A stretch of DNA of 32,000 nt, taken from the NCBI GenBank assembly GCA_019056805.1, contig DXJG01000007.1, positions 30,001 through 62,000 of the forward strand. The letters are read 5' to 3'. The stretch comes from Candidatus Baldrarchaeota archaeon (GTDB taxonomy: Archaea; Asgardarchaeota; Baldrarchaeia; Baldrarchaeales; DXJG01). The translations under genes and the position numbers were made by a program. The notes under the pieces are model-generated. The model made no database searches. It was not told the origin of the DNA and saw only the letters and a program-made list of their open reading frames with translations. Below, piece after piece: positions 20,954 to 27,931 of the stretch. How positions within the stretch are numbered: the stretch's first letter is position 1; each line of letters begins with the position of its first letter.

Positions 20954-23926
20954 CTAGGCTTCCGAGGTATTTTCTGAAATTTTTGATACTTCAGTTTCAT
21001 GTTTGGAATGTTGCGGGTATATTATGAGTAGTTCTTTATTTTCCTTTAACTTTAGCACCGTTTTGTATAATTTTATTCTCTCTGATTTTGGTAATTTTTC
21101 AAGTTCTTTTGCTAATTTTGGCATGTAAAAGAATTGGTCTTGATTTGAAATTTTTTGAATGATTTCCTTTAAGGAGCTAGGTATTTTTCTACTGTCTTCT
21201 ATCTTGTACATTGCCAAATTTTCTTTTCCAAAGATCTCATATATGATCTCCTCTGTGCCATTAAAAACTCCTAAGTCTCCTCTCCAATTATTAAAAACAT
21301 CTTTGAATTTTTCTTCGAATTTTTGTGTAATTTCTCTAATTATTTCTTTATTTTTAAGTTTCTCAGTTGAAATAGCAATTGTATATGTGTGCTCTCCAGA
21401 GGAACATGTTAAAAATCTTGGCTCTGGATCTCCATATGATATCTCATCAAGATATCCTACTTTACCGTTACTAAGTTCTGTGTAAAATGTTTGAACAGCT
21501 TGTATGAACCCAGCTATTAATTCAGGACTTCTTTCCTCGCCACCAAAAATTTTAACGTCTCTTACTGGAAGCCCGCTCCTTTTCTCAACTAATAATATCT
21601 CTTCTATCGATGAAATGGAAGATAAGTGTTCTATTTCATTAATCAATTTTGCGATTGATTTTTTTCTGTGCACAAAGTAGACAGATGAAGAAAAGAAGAA
21701 AAGAAATAAGAAAATAAGTTCTTTGAAATATTGTTTAACATTTTCTTTCACTTTTTCCAGTATAGGAGCTAAGGATAAGTATGGTGTTATTTCTATGGTT
21801 TTTTCCTCCGATTGTGAAGGTAAATATTCTCTACTTCCATTAAAGTACACTATTATTGTTAGGTTTCCAGCTGTTTGCATTTTAAAATTGTAAAAAGCTT
21901 TGCCCTCGTTATTAGTTACAAGCGTTTCATTCCACTCTCTAGTTGTACCGTTTAAGGAAGTGAATTTTAACATTAAAATTAATTCTTTACCTGGGACCCC
22001 TGTTCCGTTAATATCTGTTAGTGTTATTTCAATTCCTATGTTCTTCCCGACAGAGGCTTTTGAAGGAGCTTCAAGAATTATCCTTGTTGGAATAGGATAA
22101 ATAAGATTTAGGGTTATATTTACATGAGTTTCTTCATAATATTCTTTTATTACGTATATTGAAACGTTATACATTCCTTCTGTTAATCCATTTGTACCAA
22201 CTATGCCCTCGTAACAGTTTGTTATGTTATTATAAGTGAATTGAATTGTTCCTTTTATCCATTTTCCGTAAATATTTGCATCTGTTATATTCTCTCCGGT
22301 TATGCCATCGACACATCTAACTTTAATGGTTATATTTTCTCCTAAAAGATAATATTCGCTTAGATTTTCAACTATAATCTTTATGGTGTAGAAAACGGAA
22401 AATGTACTTATTCTATACCCTATTTCCGTTCCATTGTAGAATAGTATTGCTACTTTGTATTCTCCTTTTTCCACGTTTTGAGGTATCCATGTGAAATTAC
22501 TGCCTTCACTTATGTTCTTCGTTTCTTCATGAATTTTCACGTCAGTTACGTTGTATATTGCCATGGTTAAGTTTCCATTTGAAACTGTTACTGTTGATTT
22601 CCACTGTACAGAAAATTCTATTTTGTGGTTTATCGTAACATTTGCTGGGTGGTCTAAACTTTTTATATAGTTTATTCCTTGAAAAATTAGAAACCATGGA
22701 TCACTCATATTTACTGTTATTAAGTTTTCCTGTCTATCTATTACGTTATTTGTATTGTTTTGCAATGTCCAGTCTGATGGAACATGGAATTTCGTGCTAC
22801 AATTCAAATAGCCGCTGGGAAAAGTGTAAGTTGAGTTAACATACCATGTAACATTATCATAGTTTGTGTTAATGAAACAAGATGTGTGTAACAATTCTTC
22901 TTTTAAATGAGTAGTTTCACATGTGATATTAAATTTAAGTAACCAACTTGCCGTAACATTTAAAATTACGGGATCTTCAGTGATAAGATTCGTAAAAGTC
23001 CATGTTCCATTTTCATTAACTGATATATTATTTACTTTTAATTCATAGTCTTGAAAACTAGTTAATAACGGGGAAAGATGGACATATTGCAAAAAATAGT
23101 CTACATCTTCAGGTATGAAACTATTAGAATCAGAGTCGTAGTAGTATGCATATCCTTCATCAACTCCGTCGGTTGAAGCTGCTGGTGTAGAATCATTATA
23201 TGCCAGCCAACATACGTCTTCACTTGCCGTTAAGGCTCGAGCATATAGGTGCAAGAAGAACGTGTTATCGTAGGTTTTTGATGTGTCAAGTAAAAGGGGT
23301 GGATCGATTGTTATGTTTAATTGTAAGTATTGTGTTCCACTAATACTCATAATTGTGGTGTTGCTGATGAGCGTGGTATCTGGGTACGGTAGAATCTGCT
23401 CTTGAATTATTGTTCCTGTCGCATTCATTATAGCCCAGTCAATTGTTATTCCAGATATCACAGAGATGTTTAACTTTACTTCTAAACTCGTAAGATAACA
23501 TATGCGAGGAACTCGAAAAGACATTACTCTTGGATAATCTCCAATAGAAATATTTCCCAAGGGAAGAGGGTCTTCAGGGTGTTGCATTTCTATTTCTTTT
23601 GTTAGATTTTGCGGCTCTATATTTGTGAAGTTTAAAGCTATCTTTTCTGTGTTAAACCCGTGGGTTACAATATTTAGCGGGCTATAAAATGCGTCATTTT
23701 TTGCATCGAGAGACCTAACATGTGTTGTTTCATTATTTATCCAGTTTTTGATTTGTATTGCTGTTAGGTTTGAATGAATAATTCTATCACTAGACAAGGT
23801 AAAATTTGAAGTACATTGGGAAGGAAATGTTGAATTGGCTAAAACCTGTGGAGGGCTCATTATTGCGAAAAATATTAAAATTACTACAAGAAGTGTTAAA
23901 GTCTTCAGTTTTTCCACCAGAGTCAC
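20954..23926 (-). CDS. single-pass surface protein with a beta-rich/Ig-like ectodomain and a cytoplasmic longin-like domain
   Basis: N-terminal signal, sequon-rich ectodomain and TM LIFLFLFFFSSSVYFV followed by HRKK. The cytoplasmic ILLVEKRSGLPV...ELIAGFIQAVQTF...EISYG...WRGDLGVF pattern is typical of Asgard longin-like domains. Confidence 0.72.
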   Translation of the reverse strand: MTLVEKLKTLTLLVVILIFFAIMSPPQVLANSTFPSQCTSNFTLSSDRIIHSNLTAIQIKNWINNETTHVRSLDAKNDAFYSPLNIVTHGFNTEKIALNFTNIEPQNLTKEIEMQHPEDPLPLGNISIGDYPRVMSFRVPRICYLTSLEVKLNISVISGITIDWAIMNATGTIIQEQILPYPDTTLISNTTIMSISGTQYLQLNITIDPPLLLDTSKTYDNTFFLHLYARALTASEDVCWLAYNDSTPAASTDGVDEGYAYYYDSDSNSFIPEDVDYFLQYVHLSPLLTSFQDYELKVNNISVNENGTWTFTNLITEDPVILNVTASWLLKFNITCETTHLKEELLHTSCFINTNYDNVTWYVNSTYTFPSGYLNCSTKFHVPSDWTLQNNTNNVIDRQENLITVNMSDPWFLIFQGINYIKSLDHPANVTINHKIEFSVQWKSTVTVSNGNLTMAIYNVTDVKIHEETKNISEGSNFTWIPQNVEKGEYKVAILFYNGTEIGYRISTFSVFYTIKIIVENLSEYYLLGENITIKVRCVDGITGENITDANIYGKWIKGTIQFTYNNITNCYEGIVGTNGLTEGMYNVSIYVIKEYYEETHVNITLNLIYPIPTRIILEAPSKASVGKNIGIEITLTDINGTGVPGKELILMLKFTSLNGTTREWNETLVTNNEGKAFYNFKMQTAGNLTIIVYFNGSREYLPSQSEEKTIEITPYLSLAPILEKVKENVKQYFKELIFLFLFFFSSSVYFVHRKKSIAKLINEIEHLSSISSIEEILLVEKRSGLPVRDVKIFGGEERSPELIAGFIQAVQTFYTELSNGKVGYLDEISYGDPEPRFLTCSSGEHTYTIAISTEKLKNKEIIREITQKFEEKFKDVFNNWRGDLGVFNGTEEIIYEIFGKENLAMYKIEDSRKIPSSLKEIIQKISNQDQFFYMPKLAKELEKLPKSERIKLYKTVLKLKENKELLIIYPQHSKHETEVSKISENTSEA

Positions 23927-24615: not shown

Positions 24616-24792
24616 TATCCCTATTTTCCATCAAAATATACTGAATTTAGTTTTTCCTTAAAAATTGTGATCCGTTTATTGGACAATTTCGATTAATACA
24701 AACATAGTTACCTCAATTATTAAGTTTTAATTTCGAAGTTATTGATTAATCTTAATAAGGTTACAGTGTGTTATTATTTCTTGGTGTTTTTG

Positions 24793-25314
24793 ATGGAGAT
24801 CAAAATTGGTGAATTGTTTAAGGAAGCTATGGAACACCCTTCGAAAGAATCCATTATTATGATGTCTGAAGGACTTGAAAAATTTGTTTTAATGGTTATT
24901 AACGCTCTTGGAATTTTAGAAGAAAGAATTATCAACTTAGAAAATGAACTAAAATCTCTAAAGGAGACCATAGAATCAAAATTAAAGATAGAAAAAATGG
25001 AAATCCCACCAGCAAAACCTGTTCAAATTCCTGAATCAAAACTTCCTCCCTCACTTCCACCAGTTCCCTCCAAACCTACAGAAGAAATAGTTAAACCACC
25101 TACAAAGCCTCCTAAGGAGATAAGTGCTCCTAAGACTGTCGGGCCTGAAGAAAAAGATATTGAAGCCTTTAGAAAAGGATTGTTAAAACCTACACCGAAA
25201 ATTGAGGAAAAGGAGAAAAAACCTGTCTCTCTCAGAGATGCTCTTATGCAAGAATTAAAAAACTATTTTAATACTGCTATGAAAAAGGTTCGTAAAGAGG
25301 AAGTAGAGGAATGA
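24793..25314 (+). CDS. coiled-coil, proline-rich protein with WH2/beta-thymosin-like motif(s)
   Basis: Heptad ILEERIINLENELKSLKETIE, Pro-rich PPAKP...LPPSLPPVPSKP...KPPTKPPK, DIEAFRKGLLKPT and SLRDALMQELK. ATG 24793 has GGTG upstream (track start 24742). Confidence 0.6.
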   Translation: MEIKIGELFKEAMEHPSKESIIMMSEGLEKFVLMVINALGILEERIINLENELKSLKETIESKLKIEKMEIPPAKPVQIPESKLPPSLPPVPSKPTEEIVKPPTKPPKEISAPKTVGPEEKDIEAFRKGLLKPTPKIEEKEKKPVSLRDALMQELKNYFNTAMKKVRKEEVEE

Positions 25315-25319
25315 AAATT

Positions 25320-26237
25320 CTAGGATAATATTTTTAGTACTTTTTCTTTTATTTCTTGAAGTGATGATAGAAGTTTTCCTAGTTTAAAGTCTCTTTCTTT
25401 TAGTATTGAAAACATAGCTATTTCATCGCTTATGTTGTAAACTGCGATGTATTCTCTTTTTATATGCCACAGTGCTAAGTCTGCTGTATCAAAGGTTATG
25501 TATCCGCTTTTACGTAGTTGCGAGAACATTGTTCTCACCGTCTCGATAGGTTTTATTAGAGATTTTGCAGATACATATTTTAGTTTCTTCGGGTTAATGA
25601 GTTCTTTGCTTATTGCTGAAGCTATTTCTAAACCGTCTCCCTTGTTTAGAATGAAAGATGCTAAGGCTTTTTGTTTTTTATTGAATTTTGCTAAGATTTT
25701 ATGGATTTTCTCAGCCACTTCTTTTGCTTCTTTGGAAAGAACGCTATCTAAGAGTTTACAAACAACCGTTCTAGCTGTTCCCTCTGGTATAGATGTGGCC
25801 TCAACAACCACATTATGATTTCCAAATATTTTTCGTATTTCCTTTATGGAAATCTTTTTTATATCATATTTGCTGGCTAAAACGAATATTCTTGCATTCG
25901 GAGAATATTTTTTAAGATATTCTAGGGCTTTAAGATATTCTTGTTTTGCTTCATCGATTGTTTCTTTGTTAGAGGAGTCTACTACGAAGAAGAATGCACC
26001 TACGTTTGAAAATATTTTTCCTGACCATTGATCTGTGAAATATTTGTATATGAATTGTTTTTGTCCTCCTACATCAAAAGTTGTAACTTCTAATAAGCCT
26101 CTATACTTGTATGTTTTTGTACTTACAAATTCTGTTGGTTCTAAGTTCTTTACATCGTCCCAGTCTTTCCCTTCAAAAACATGTTTAACCAAAGATGTTT
26201 TTCCAGCTGCTCTTAACCCCATTATTAAAACTTTCAT
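25320..26237 (-). CDS. Rag/Gtr1-like small GTPase with C-terminal roadblock-like domain
   Basis: G1 GLRAAGKTS, G2 LEPT, G3 DVGGQ, G4 SKYD and G5 ATSI. Rag-like signatures are KVLIMG, YFTDQWSGKIFSNV and KYSPNARIFVL, plus a ~130-aa C-terminal alpha/beta domain. ATG 26237 is preferred; TTG 26246 is an alternative. Confidence 0.85.
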   Translation of the reverse strand: MKVLIMGLRAAGKTSLVKHVFEGKDWDDVKNLEPTEFVSTKTYKYRGLLEVTTFDVGGQKQFIYKYFTDQWSGKIFSNVGAFFFVVDSSNKETIDEAKQEYLKALEYLKKYSPNARIFVLASKYDIKKISIKEIRKIFGNHNVVVEATSIPEGTARTVVCKLLDSVLSKEAKEVAEKIHKILAKFNKKQKALASFILNKGDGLEIASAISKELINPKKLKYVSAKSLIKPIETVRTMFSQLRKSGYITFDTADLALWHIKREYIAVYNISDEIAMFSILKERDFKLGKLLSSLQEIKEKVLKILS

Positions 26238-26367: not shown

Positions 26368-27732
26368 TTAAGACGCAATAACGTAGGTAATTGAGATTAA
26401 ACAAAAGTTGATTAAAATATATAGAAGCAAGATTATTATTCCTCGTTTATTCACTAATTTTCCTTTAGAAGACCCTAAATATATTAGGATTCCAGAAATA
26501 AAGCTTAGAGTTGCATAGTGAATTTCTGAGGGATCAGGAAATTTTGGATAGAAAAGTTCTGGAATAAGTAGGGTTGGTAAATTCACTACTTTAAGCAATA
26601 GAAGTAGAAGTTCGATGAAAATCAAGATGAGACATGTTTTTGACAATTTTTCTCTAACCGTTATTAGCGAACATATGAGAAGTGAAGAAATTAGCATTAA
26701 TGTTAATGTGAAGAGATTATAGCCTACATAAATTAGATAGGTGATTATACAGAGAGATATTATAATTATGAGGTCTCTATATGGAAAACTTATTCTTTGA
26801 GTGATTCTTTTGGCTTTTCTACTGCCTAAAGTTCCCATGGAAATAAGAAATCCGGATAGTAAGGCTAAAAATATGTATATATAGAAACTTGAGGTTATAG
26901 TCGCAGGAAAAGGCTGCAGACCTTTAATGACTGTTAAATTAAATAATTTTGTAGCTATTGCTTGAGAAGAGGTTAAAGCAAGTTCAACTATAACTAATAC
27001 ATATACTAAATATAGTGGCCAGTCTTTTCTAGCGTATAAGTTGAAAAGAAGTGCTCCCCAAGTTGCATAAAATATTATGGTTGTAATTTCATACATAGCA
27101 AATGAAAATGTAAGTAACACCATACCTAGGATGAATATAAGTCCCCTTATTGGTAAAGGTGACTCAGAGATCTCTGAAATTTTCCTATCTACCTTTTCGA
27201 CTAAGGCTGGCCTTTTTAATGGTTGAAATAATTTAACGTGTTTCTTATCTTCTACTTTTGGGGACAATGGTTTTTTGAGAGATTTCAATTGTTTATAGAA
27301 GGATTTTAATATTTTTTGATAATTGCTCCAGTTTTCTTGCATTTTTGATATAACATTTGATAACTTTTCTTTTACATCCTCTGAATCTTCAATTTCATCT
27401 GCAATTATGGCCAAAGCGTATATTTCCTTACCTCCTCTAGCTTCTTCAGACTCTATATAAAATCTTTTAGCTAAACATTTGGTACCTGAAATCGAGAACA
27501 AAGTGTATTCTAGTTCCTCCCCCATTCCAATCGCGTTTTTTGCTATTTTCTCTAAAATTTCGGGTTTTCGTGCAAAAAGTCTACCAGGATATTTATTTAC
27601 TGGTATGAAACCTTTAACTTCATCAAACTTACATAGAACTAAACCCTTTAGGTTAACTTTTCTATCTTTTACAGATTCTTCCACCTTAAAATTACTTTCA
27701 CTGGACTTTTGATTCTCTTTATTATTTGTCAA
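26368..27732 (-). CDS. N-terminal longin/uDENN-like (FLCN/SMCR8-like) domain fused to a ~9-TM membrane domain
   Basis: LVLCKFDEVKGF...YP first strand and FYIESEEARGGKEIYALAII motif. The C-terminal ~260 aa are highly hydrophobic with an internal 4-TM repeat. Confidence 0.7.
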   Translation of the reverse strand: MTNNKENQKSSESNFKVEESVKDRKVNLKGLVLCKFDEVKGFIPVNKYPGRLFARKPEILEKIAKNAIGMGEELEYTLFSISGTKCLAKRFYIESEEARGGKEIYALAIIADEIEDSEDVKEKLSNVISKMQENWSNYQKILKSFYKQLKSLKKPLSPKVEDKKHVKLFQPLKRPALVEKVDRKISEISESPLPIRGLIFILGMVLLTFSFAMYEITTIIFYATWGALLFNLYARKDWPLYLVYVLVIVELALTSSQAIATKLFNLTVIKGLQPFPATITSSFYIYIFLALLSGFLISMGTLGSRKAKRITQRISFPYRDLIIIISLCIITYLIYVGYNLFTLTLMLISSLLICSLITVREKLSKTCLILIFIELLLLLLKVVNLPTLLIPELFYPKFPDPSEIHYATLSFISGILIYLGSSKGKLVNKRGIIILLLYILINFCLISITYVIAS

Positions 27733-27931
27733 CTTACATAATTACCTCCAACAAACGTTCAAAGCCTAAAATAGTGAAGCGGTATTTAACAGCCCTTAAT
27801 TTAGTTAATTAAAACTTATCTATTATGAAACTTAAAAACGCTTCTAAGAATTTCTGTGTGCGTATATCTAAAATTAAAGGTAAAATGGTTTCAACAGAGG
27901 AAAACGAACTAAAAGTTCAAAATAACACTTG

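Follow-up and report, generated by a model that had tools for sequence, protein, structure and literature searches.

A membrane-fused archaeal longin protein with a candidate arginine finger is encoded beside a RagA-like GTPase

The window analysed here is a 32,000-nucleotide stretch of contig DXJG01000007.1 from a Candidatus Baldrarchaeota archaeon (assembly GCA_019056805.1, positions 30,001 to 62,000). It carries the gene for P0001, a protein that joins a longin domain to a polytopic membrane domain, and, downstream on the same strand, the gene for P0002, a RagA/Gtr1-like GTPase (Table 1). The two open reading frames (ORFs) are 121 bp apart, or 130 bp when P0002 is counted from its probable start, the ATG at 26237. 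P0001 starts with a TTG codon preceded, 11 nt upstream, by GGAGGT; between the two lies an ATG directly followed by TAA, a one-codon ORF (27732-27748, minus strand). The close homologues of P0001 are 444-458 aa long and share 66-80% identity with it. Its first ~165 residues are soluble in character and the remainder is hydrophobic. The 27 polar residues at the N-terminus are kept in close homologues only, and distant homologues begin at the first β-strand.

Table 1. Features of the longin-GTPase locus, arrangements of the gene pair and related fusions. Positions are those of the window unless a locus or protein is named.
Feature	Position, locus or protein	Strand	Basis
P0001, whole longin gene, 454 aa	26368..27732	-	ORF translation
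P0001 layout, N- to C-terminus: polar tail, longin domain, basic linker, polytopic membrane domain	26368..27732	-	
Longin domain, aa 28-157, β-β-α-β-β-β-α-α	27262..27651	-	hidden Markov model (HMM) envelope, AlphaFold2 (AF2) model, structure searches
F36-D37...G41, counterpart of the 'GP motif' region, β1-β2 turn	27610..27627	-	alignments
R99, candidate arginine finger, followed by invariant G100; β4-β5 loop	27436..27438	-	alignments and AF2 model
Membrane domain (aa 191-454): two copies of a 4-helix unit, with about 7-8 hydrophobic helices in all	26371..27162	-	Kyte-Doolittle hydropathy, half comparisons
P0002, RagA/Gtr1-like GTPase, 308 aa	25320..26246	-	Pfam, PDB sequence, AF2, Foldseek
Coiled-coil, Pro/Lys/Glu-rich gene, ~173 aa from an internal ATG, convergent to the GTPase gene	24742..25314	+	no Pfam family
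Longin and GTPase genes on the same strand, either order, 43-130 bp	window, L001, L002-4, L009, L036, L042		
Longin and GTPase genes with one gene between (0.9 kb)	L006		
Longin and GTPase genes divergent, 1.4-2 kb	L008, L041		
Longin and GTPase genes 2.3-3.8 kb apart	L038, L039, L040		
DUF87/HerA-like fusions	P0018, P0021-P0023, P0025; L012:5001-8396		Pfam DUF87 on L012

The preliminary description of this DNA had read the longin domain as retaining the arginine-finger motif of folliculin (FLCN) and SMCR8, from two segments set beside FLCN strings. Translation of the ORF places LVLCKFDEVKGF at residues 31-42 and FYIESEEARGGKEIYALAII at residues 91-110, as had been claimed, and counting along it returns the codon assigned to R99. 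The FLCN strings are genuine and occur verbatim in solved FLCN chains. HMMER prints FFIKDSLARGFQRWYSII for chain 6ulg_L, in which counting from residue 146/148 makes the arginine residue 164, and MNAIVALCHFCELHGP for the FLCN N-terminus; VALCHFCELHGP corresponds to FLCN residues 5-16 (chain 6nzd_H, with a 43-residue tag offset). An arginine finger together with the glycine of a 'GP motif' forms the motif set of longins of the GTPase-activating protein (GAP) type (PMC12290439). At the place of the GP motif P0001 reads G-F, with a proline at +3.

A HMMER scan with residues 1-165 of P0001 against 1.84 billion representatives yielded 20 relatives. No positions other than F36, D37, G41, F91, R99 and G100 are invariant across these 20 domains, which show 28-76% identity. 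In a merged 33-sequence alignment of the P0001 family with 15 Asgard longins, most of them above the Pfam Folliculin cut-off, D37, G41, F91, R99 and G100 remain invariant, with homologues down to 16% identity. Variability of the arginine among homologues, which the preliminary description had named as grounds for refutation, is thus not seen.

The relation to FLCN was then examined by sequence. Pfam gave only sub-threshold matches for P0001, the top two being Folliculin (E 0.02-0.05) and DENND11, with a weak match to Afi1 as well. Folliculin recurs as a sub-threshold match in 15 of the 20 family members (best E 2.3e-4), and no other Pfam family recurs in more than two of them. Neither phmmer with the domain alone nor the family profile retrieved an FLCN, SMCR8 or NPRL2 chain from the PDB sequences; the top direct matches, eL38 and a tRNA synthetase, were taken as noise (E 0.08 or worse). 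Because the family profile alone misses FLCN, bridging sequences were sought. Of 201 genomes searched in the phylum, 66 contain a match to the Pfam Folliculin model at E <= 0.01, 32 of them above the curated cut-off, and the matches in Asgard ORFs always span profile positions ~44-108, the part also matched by P0001. The family HMM retrieves these ORFs over the whole domain (E 8e-10 to 3.5e-4). They encode soluble longins in which FDExxGP and ARGG stand in register with the FDExxG(F/Y) and ARGG of the P0001 family, and hhalign of the family against the 15 Asgard longins gives a probability of 97.5% (E 5e-12).

The profile of these bridging longins reaches human FLCN at E 0.094 and aligns its arginine with R164. 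That search also aligned the solved Lokiarchaeota longin 8yqg, which has no arginine at the place equivalent to R99, indicating that this arginine is not a generic longin feature. With the merged profile headed by P0001, human FLCN ranks first among 177,635 PDB sequences (E 0.011). The ARG of P0001 falls on A163-R164-G165 of FLCN, so that R99 is aligned with the catalytic arginine, and a weak second alignment piece puts the glycine of the FLCN 'HGP' on G41. FLCN turned up in the PDB-sequence search only once the Pfam-positive Asgard longins had been added. The recurrence of Folliculin in 15 of the 20 members, and the first rank of FLCN with the arginine in register, argue that the resemblance goes beyond chance.

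We next considered the fold. The AF2 model of the longin domain, built on the 20-domain alignment, has a predicted local distance difference test (pLDDT) value of 84.7, and its order of elements is that of a longin, as in the GAP longins of the FLCN/SMCR8/NPRL2 type. R99 lies in the β4-β5 loop (model residues 74-80), where that class carries its conserved catalytic arginine (R164 in FLCN, R78 in NPRL2, R147 in SMCR8), and G41 opens β2. In VIA-align the best match is the Lokiarchaeota longin 8yqg (Z 14.0), in company with NPRL2 (Z 12.6-13.0), FLCN (Z 12.8, root-mean-square deviation 2.6 Å over 128 residues, 16% identity) and the longins of the DENND1A/B Rab guanine nucleotide exchange factors (GEFs; Z 11.7-12.3, DENND1A 12.3), whereas SNARE and adaptor longins reach only about Z 8-10. 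Foldseek against the PDB ranks NPRL2/Npr2 chains of GATOR1/SEAC at the top (E 6e-6), with DENND10 and FLCN next. The ranges of that match (model 5-134 against NPRL2 5-143) are compatible, at the level of ranges only, with R99 (model residue 78) lying at or near R78 of NPRL2. A search of the AFDB clusters returned an NPRL2-like protein (E 1e-7, 21% identity), a 'Folliculin/SMCR8 longin domain-containing protein', DENND11 and AVL9/DENND6. With the predicted model as query, three structure libraries converge on NPRL2 and FLCN. The loop position in the model, the fold match and the sequence alignment on R164 all place the arginine of P0001 in the same loop as that of FLCN. These results support the reading of R99 as an FLCN-type arginine that had been proposed from the sequence; the evolutionary point attached to it has already been published for other Asgard longins (PMC12290439).

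The membrane domain comprises about seven windows with a mean Kyte-Doolittle hydropathy of at least 1.6. Short family members of ~310-330 aa have a single unit of 4-5 helices, to which the second half of the P0001 domain (aa 309-454) is clearly homologous (z ~15 against shuffles). The first half is a fainter copy of this unit, and the two halves compared with each other give z 4.6. As judged by these comparisons, the membrane domain has been conserved together with the longin domain, and in the long forms it is duplicated; across the subfamily it ranges from 4 to 8 helices. It matched no Pfam family and gave no usable match in the ESM Atlas feature search. A motif like LSFxSGILIxxG is repeated near its last helix.

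P0002 matches Pfam Gtr1_RagA (E 3.7e-27, 95.7 bits), and among PDB sequences it is matched best by Gtr1 and RagA, with Arf behind them. It has the two-domain build of Rag/Gtr proteins, an Arf-like G domain (aa 1-171) followed by a roadblock-type C-terminal domain (aa 172-307). The AF2 model (pLDDT 84.4) reproduces this order, with an α-β-β-α-β-β-β-α roadblock domain after the G domain. Foldseek with this model finds RagA over its full length (E 1e-22, TM-score about 0.7) and also Gtr1, over ~310 columns, and ranks RagA/Gtr1 above RagC/Gtr2 and the solved Lokiarchaeota Rag-like proteins. The P-loop, the switch-I threonine, the DxGGQ motif (Q62) and KxD do not vary in the 31 orthologues compared; G4 of P0002 itself reads SKYD. 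The P-loop, GLRAAGKT, carries R12 where Arf has an aspartate, at the position equivalent to G12 of Ras. We considered R12 as a required intrinsic finger and rejected it, as the residue is arginine in only 25 of the 31 orthologues and asparagine or lysine in the others. On the alignment, the conservation of P0002 is the pattern of a GTPase that would need an arginine supplied in trans. The genome (1.92 Mb, 91% complete) holds one strong Gtr1_RagA gene, and its eight other small GTPases reach only 20-28 bits. With this single strong gene, a heterodimer of the RagA/B with RagC/D kind is not found in the genome, and P0002 would presumably act as a homodimer.

The pairing of the two genes is conserved. 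Our survey covered every retrievable membrane-fused member. A full-length Rag-like orthologue lies within 4 kb of the membrane-fused longin gene in 11 of 12 loci, from about 6-8 lineages, and these neighbouring GTPases score 390-480 bits against the orthologue HMM. The arrangement of the pair varies (Table 1), with one to three genes between longin and GTPase where they are separated. Genomes with the membrane form have only 2-4 such GTPases per 3.7-5.8 Mb, so that proximity within 4 kb would be expected by chance in about 1% of cases per genome. The genome studied here contains exactly one longin of the P0001 type, adjoining its sole strong Rag-like GTPase. Among near relatives the longin and GTPase genes appear to be either both present or both missing; both are missing from G029, G039 and the same-order genome G007. 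In G018 the GTPase gene sits at the first bases of a contig, and an upstream longin gene would therefore fall off the assembly. The membrane-fused family is rare; a search of 400 genomes in the phylum (E <= 1e-8) found it in 8. For the forms without a membrane domain, namely the DUF87/HerA-like fusions, P0029, L043, L046 and the soluble Pfam-positive longins (flanks of 1.5 kb), no Rag-like neighbour was found.

Other genes recur around the pair. The convergent coiled-coil gene of the window is conserved beside the GTPase gene in close relatives; in L001, L002-4 and L034 its place is taken by genes of 173-174 aa. The convergent ORF, of 190 aa in full, was considered as a second longin of the module and rejected, being coiled-coil and proline-rich. 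In three loci a gene for PAC2 (proteasome assembly chaperone 2), on the other strand, comes directly downstream of the gene for the short membrane-fused longin (L007:1764-2513, L009:6017-6799 and L036:7029-7805). The longin profile also makes a partial match (E 5e-6) to the N-terminus, FLCFFDEARGH..., of a CBS-domain protein of 631 aa, whose gene (L035:7037-8932) lies two genes downstream from that of a Rag-like GTPase. Further along the window, an ORF of 990 aa on the minus strand (20954-23926) encodes immunoglobulin-like domains (Big_3_5, Big_1).

The arginine-bearing longin also occurs in other settings. It is embedded in proteins of 880-1130 aa that also contain long coiled coils and a DUF87/HerA-like P-loop ATPase (Table 1), and no GTPase gene was found near these fusion loci. 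In such proteins an arginine-finger longin may act on an ATPase. In one complete Asgard genome, three soluble longin genes positive for Pfam Folliculin stand in tandem (396, 382 and 173 aa; L022, G038:C1:639125-642370), and their products may be heteromeric partners.

P0001 is a homologue of the longins of the FLCN/NPRL2/SMCR8 class and an orthologue of none of them. With human FLCN, the GAP for RagC/D (PDB 6NZD, 6ULG, 8DHB), it shares the longin fold, an Arg-Gly in the β4-β5 loop aligned with R164-G165, the aligned glycine of the GP motif, and an association with a Rag-type GTPase. Unlike FLCN, it has no zinc-binding insert, DENN domain or FNIP-like partner, it reads G-F for GP, and its neighbour GTPase is nearer to RagA/Gtr1 than to RagC/Gtr2. 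The lack of a DENN domain and of a partner longin and the change of GP to G-F/Y show that it is not an FLCN orthologue. Members of this class carry a C-terminal DENN domain and have, as an obligate partner, a second longin-DENN subunit (FNIP, C9orf72 or NPRL3); the C-terminus of P0001 is instead the membrane domain of 7-8 helices. NPRL2/Npr2 of GATOR1/SEACIT, the GAP for RagA/Gtr1 (PDB 7T3B, 9O5A, 8ADL), is the best PDB match in Foldseek, and the pairing of P0001 with a RagA-like GTPase parallels that of NPRL2 with RagA. In contrast to NPRL2, P0001 is membrane-fused, lacks NPRL3 or DEPDC5 partners, and has no detectable sequence match to it.

Nearer relatives are the soluble Asgard longins of the Folliculin/SMCR8 type (Traffic 2025, PMC12290439), homologous proteins from the same phylum in which a GP motif together with an arginine finger was reported in 2025. 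They share FDExxG and ARGG with the P0001 subfamily; they have no transmembrane helices, a true GP and no Rag-like gene within the 1.5-kb flanks, whereas the P0001 subfamily is membrane-fused, reads G-F/Y, is rare and is linked to Rag-like genes. In the monomeric DENN GAPs of the Avl9/DENND6/DENND11 type, the arginine finger likewise sits between longin β4 and β5 (preprint 10.64898/2026.01.05.697756), and P0001 may similarly act as a monomer or homomer. Unlike P0001, these proteins have cDENN/dDENN domains, and their substrates are Arf-family GTPases. The longin of the Lokiarchaeota Roadblock-Longin protein (8YQG), the best fold match in VIA-align, is a dimeric Asgard longin and differs in lacking the arginine at β4-β5.

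On this evidence we lean, with moderate confidence, towards P0001 being an arginine-finger GAP that is tethered to the membrane and acts on the RagA-like GTPase encoded next to it. In the mechanism that we propose, the C-terminal helices would keep the longin domain on the cytoplasmic side of the membrane, from where it would dock, probably as a dimer, onto the G domain of the GTPase encoded just downstream. R99 would enter the nucleotide pocket from the β4-β5 loop and, together with the invariant Gln62 of the GTPase, complete the active site, and the Rag-like GTPase would be switched to its GDP form. A complex prediction of the longin domain with P0002 residues 1-180, GTP and Mg scored 0.08, against a mark of 0.32, and carries no weight either way.

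Several observations weigh against this proposal. Eukaryotic longin GAPs are heterodimers of two different longin-DENN proteins; P0001 has neither a DENN domain nor a second longin, and the family profile found no further longin of its type in the 91%-complete genome. By itself P0001 fails the Pfam Folliculin (PF11704) cut-off (13.9-15.5 bits against a curated 23.3), and the sequence link to FLCN is marginal and partly transitive. Of the GP motif only the glycine is in place: G41 is invariant and in register, and the next residue is F/Y throughout the membrane-fused subfamily. The pairing has its exceptions as well. In L007, an 8-kb contig, the membrane-fused longin gene stands near a different GTPase that is itself fused to a longin. 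Among four further loci of Rag-like orthologues, a longin gene is adjacent in one and none lies within 5 kb in two. Finally, the same arginine-bearing longin occurs on ATPases and in soluble forms with no Rag-like neighbour, and the arginine need not therefore be specific to Rag proteins. The longin-fused GTPase of L007 (L007:3306-4385), two genes from the membrane-fused longin gene, is a 359-aa protein of the Arf/Ras/Roc type with an N-terminal longin of the P0001 family (E 1e-5) and a KRRGG loop.

The main rival reading, to which we give an appreciable but minor likelihood, is that the longin serves as a docking platform, like the longins of Ragulator/EGO, Mon1-Ccz1, TRAPP and DENN proteins, and recruits the lipid-free Rag-like GTPase to the membrane or promotes its nucleotide exchange, with Arg-Gly and FD..G as a binding surface. 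Longin and roadblock proteins are for the most part platforms or GEFs (Tran et al. 2024, PMC10933270), and the DENND1A/B Rab-GEF longins also score high against the model. Eukaryotic Rags, which have no lipid anchor of their own, depend on a membrane-bound roadblock/longin scaffold, and the membrane fusion and Rag linkage fit an anchor as well as a GAP. A platform does not account for the identity of the invariant residues, which are the motif set of GAP-type longins (PMC12290439) and are missing from the solved non-GAP Asgard longin 8yqg. The nearest folds and names are, moreover, mostly those of known or predicted GAP longins.

It is also conceivable, although we consider it unlikely, that the longin controls the membrane domain of its own protein or else some other NTPase, perhaps as an arginine-finger regulator of NTPases in general, and that the neighbouring GTPase is not its substrate. 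The fusion of the same domain to DUF87/HerA-like ATPases and its occurrence with no GTPase nearby would fit this, and intramolecular regulation is known for longins of the SNARE type. Such a role is hard to square with a Rag linkage that persists through rearrangements in 11 of the 12 membrane-fused loci, against the ~1% expected, and with the one-to-one pair in this genome. That the FLCN resemblance is convergent or due to chance, the domain being an unrelated longin, we regard as very improbable and already disfavoured. The direct FLCN scores are indeed weak (15 bits in Pfam, E 0.011 with the PDB profile) and the family-only profile found no FLCN chain; set against this are the recurrence of Pfam Folliculin in the family, the 97.5% profile-profile probability to Asgard longins that mostly exceed the Pfam cut-off, both motifs in register, and the agreement of three structure libraries on NPRL2/FLCN.

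If P0001 is a GAP, a wider picture can be put forward tentatively, as possible rather than probable. The pair may form a minimal archaeal Rag switch, in which the duplicated 4-helix domain, a possible sensor of a solute or of membrane state, is combined with an FLCN/NPRL2-like GAP acting on a homodimeric RagA-like GTPase. Such a module would resemble a pre-eukaryotic ancestor of the lysosomal nutrient switch of Rag and GATOR1/folliculin, and would unite membrane scaffold, sensor and GAP in one polypeptide.

FLCN, GATOR1 and C9orf72-SMCR8 are disease-linked longin GAPs whose origin is debated. Asgard GTPase genes generally lie outside operons with longin genes, so that genome layout is of little help in pairing regulators with GTPases (Tran et al. 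2024, PMC10933270), and the 2025 study asked whether ArfR or Rag/Gtr GTPases partner the Asgard arginine-finger longins (PMC12290439). The literature searched, which did not extend to the sequence supplement of PMC12290439, contained no description of a membrane-fused form or of a conserved Rag linkage, and both features of the subfamily appear to be new. To the question of the GTPase partner the subfamily offers a concrete answer, a synteny-conserved, one-to-one candidate pair in a small genome. If the GAP activity holds, the pairing of a Rag protein with a longin GAP, already attached to the membrane, would predate eukaryogenesis, and the longin-GTPase pair is a candidate archaeal forerunner of the FLCN/NPRL2 Rag switch.

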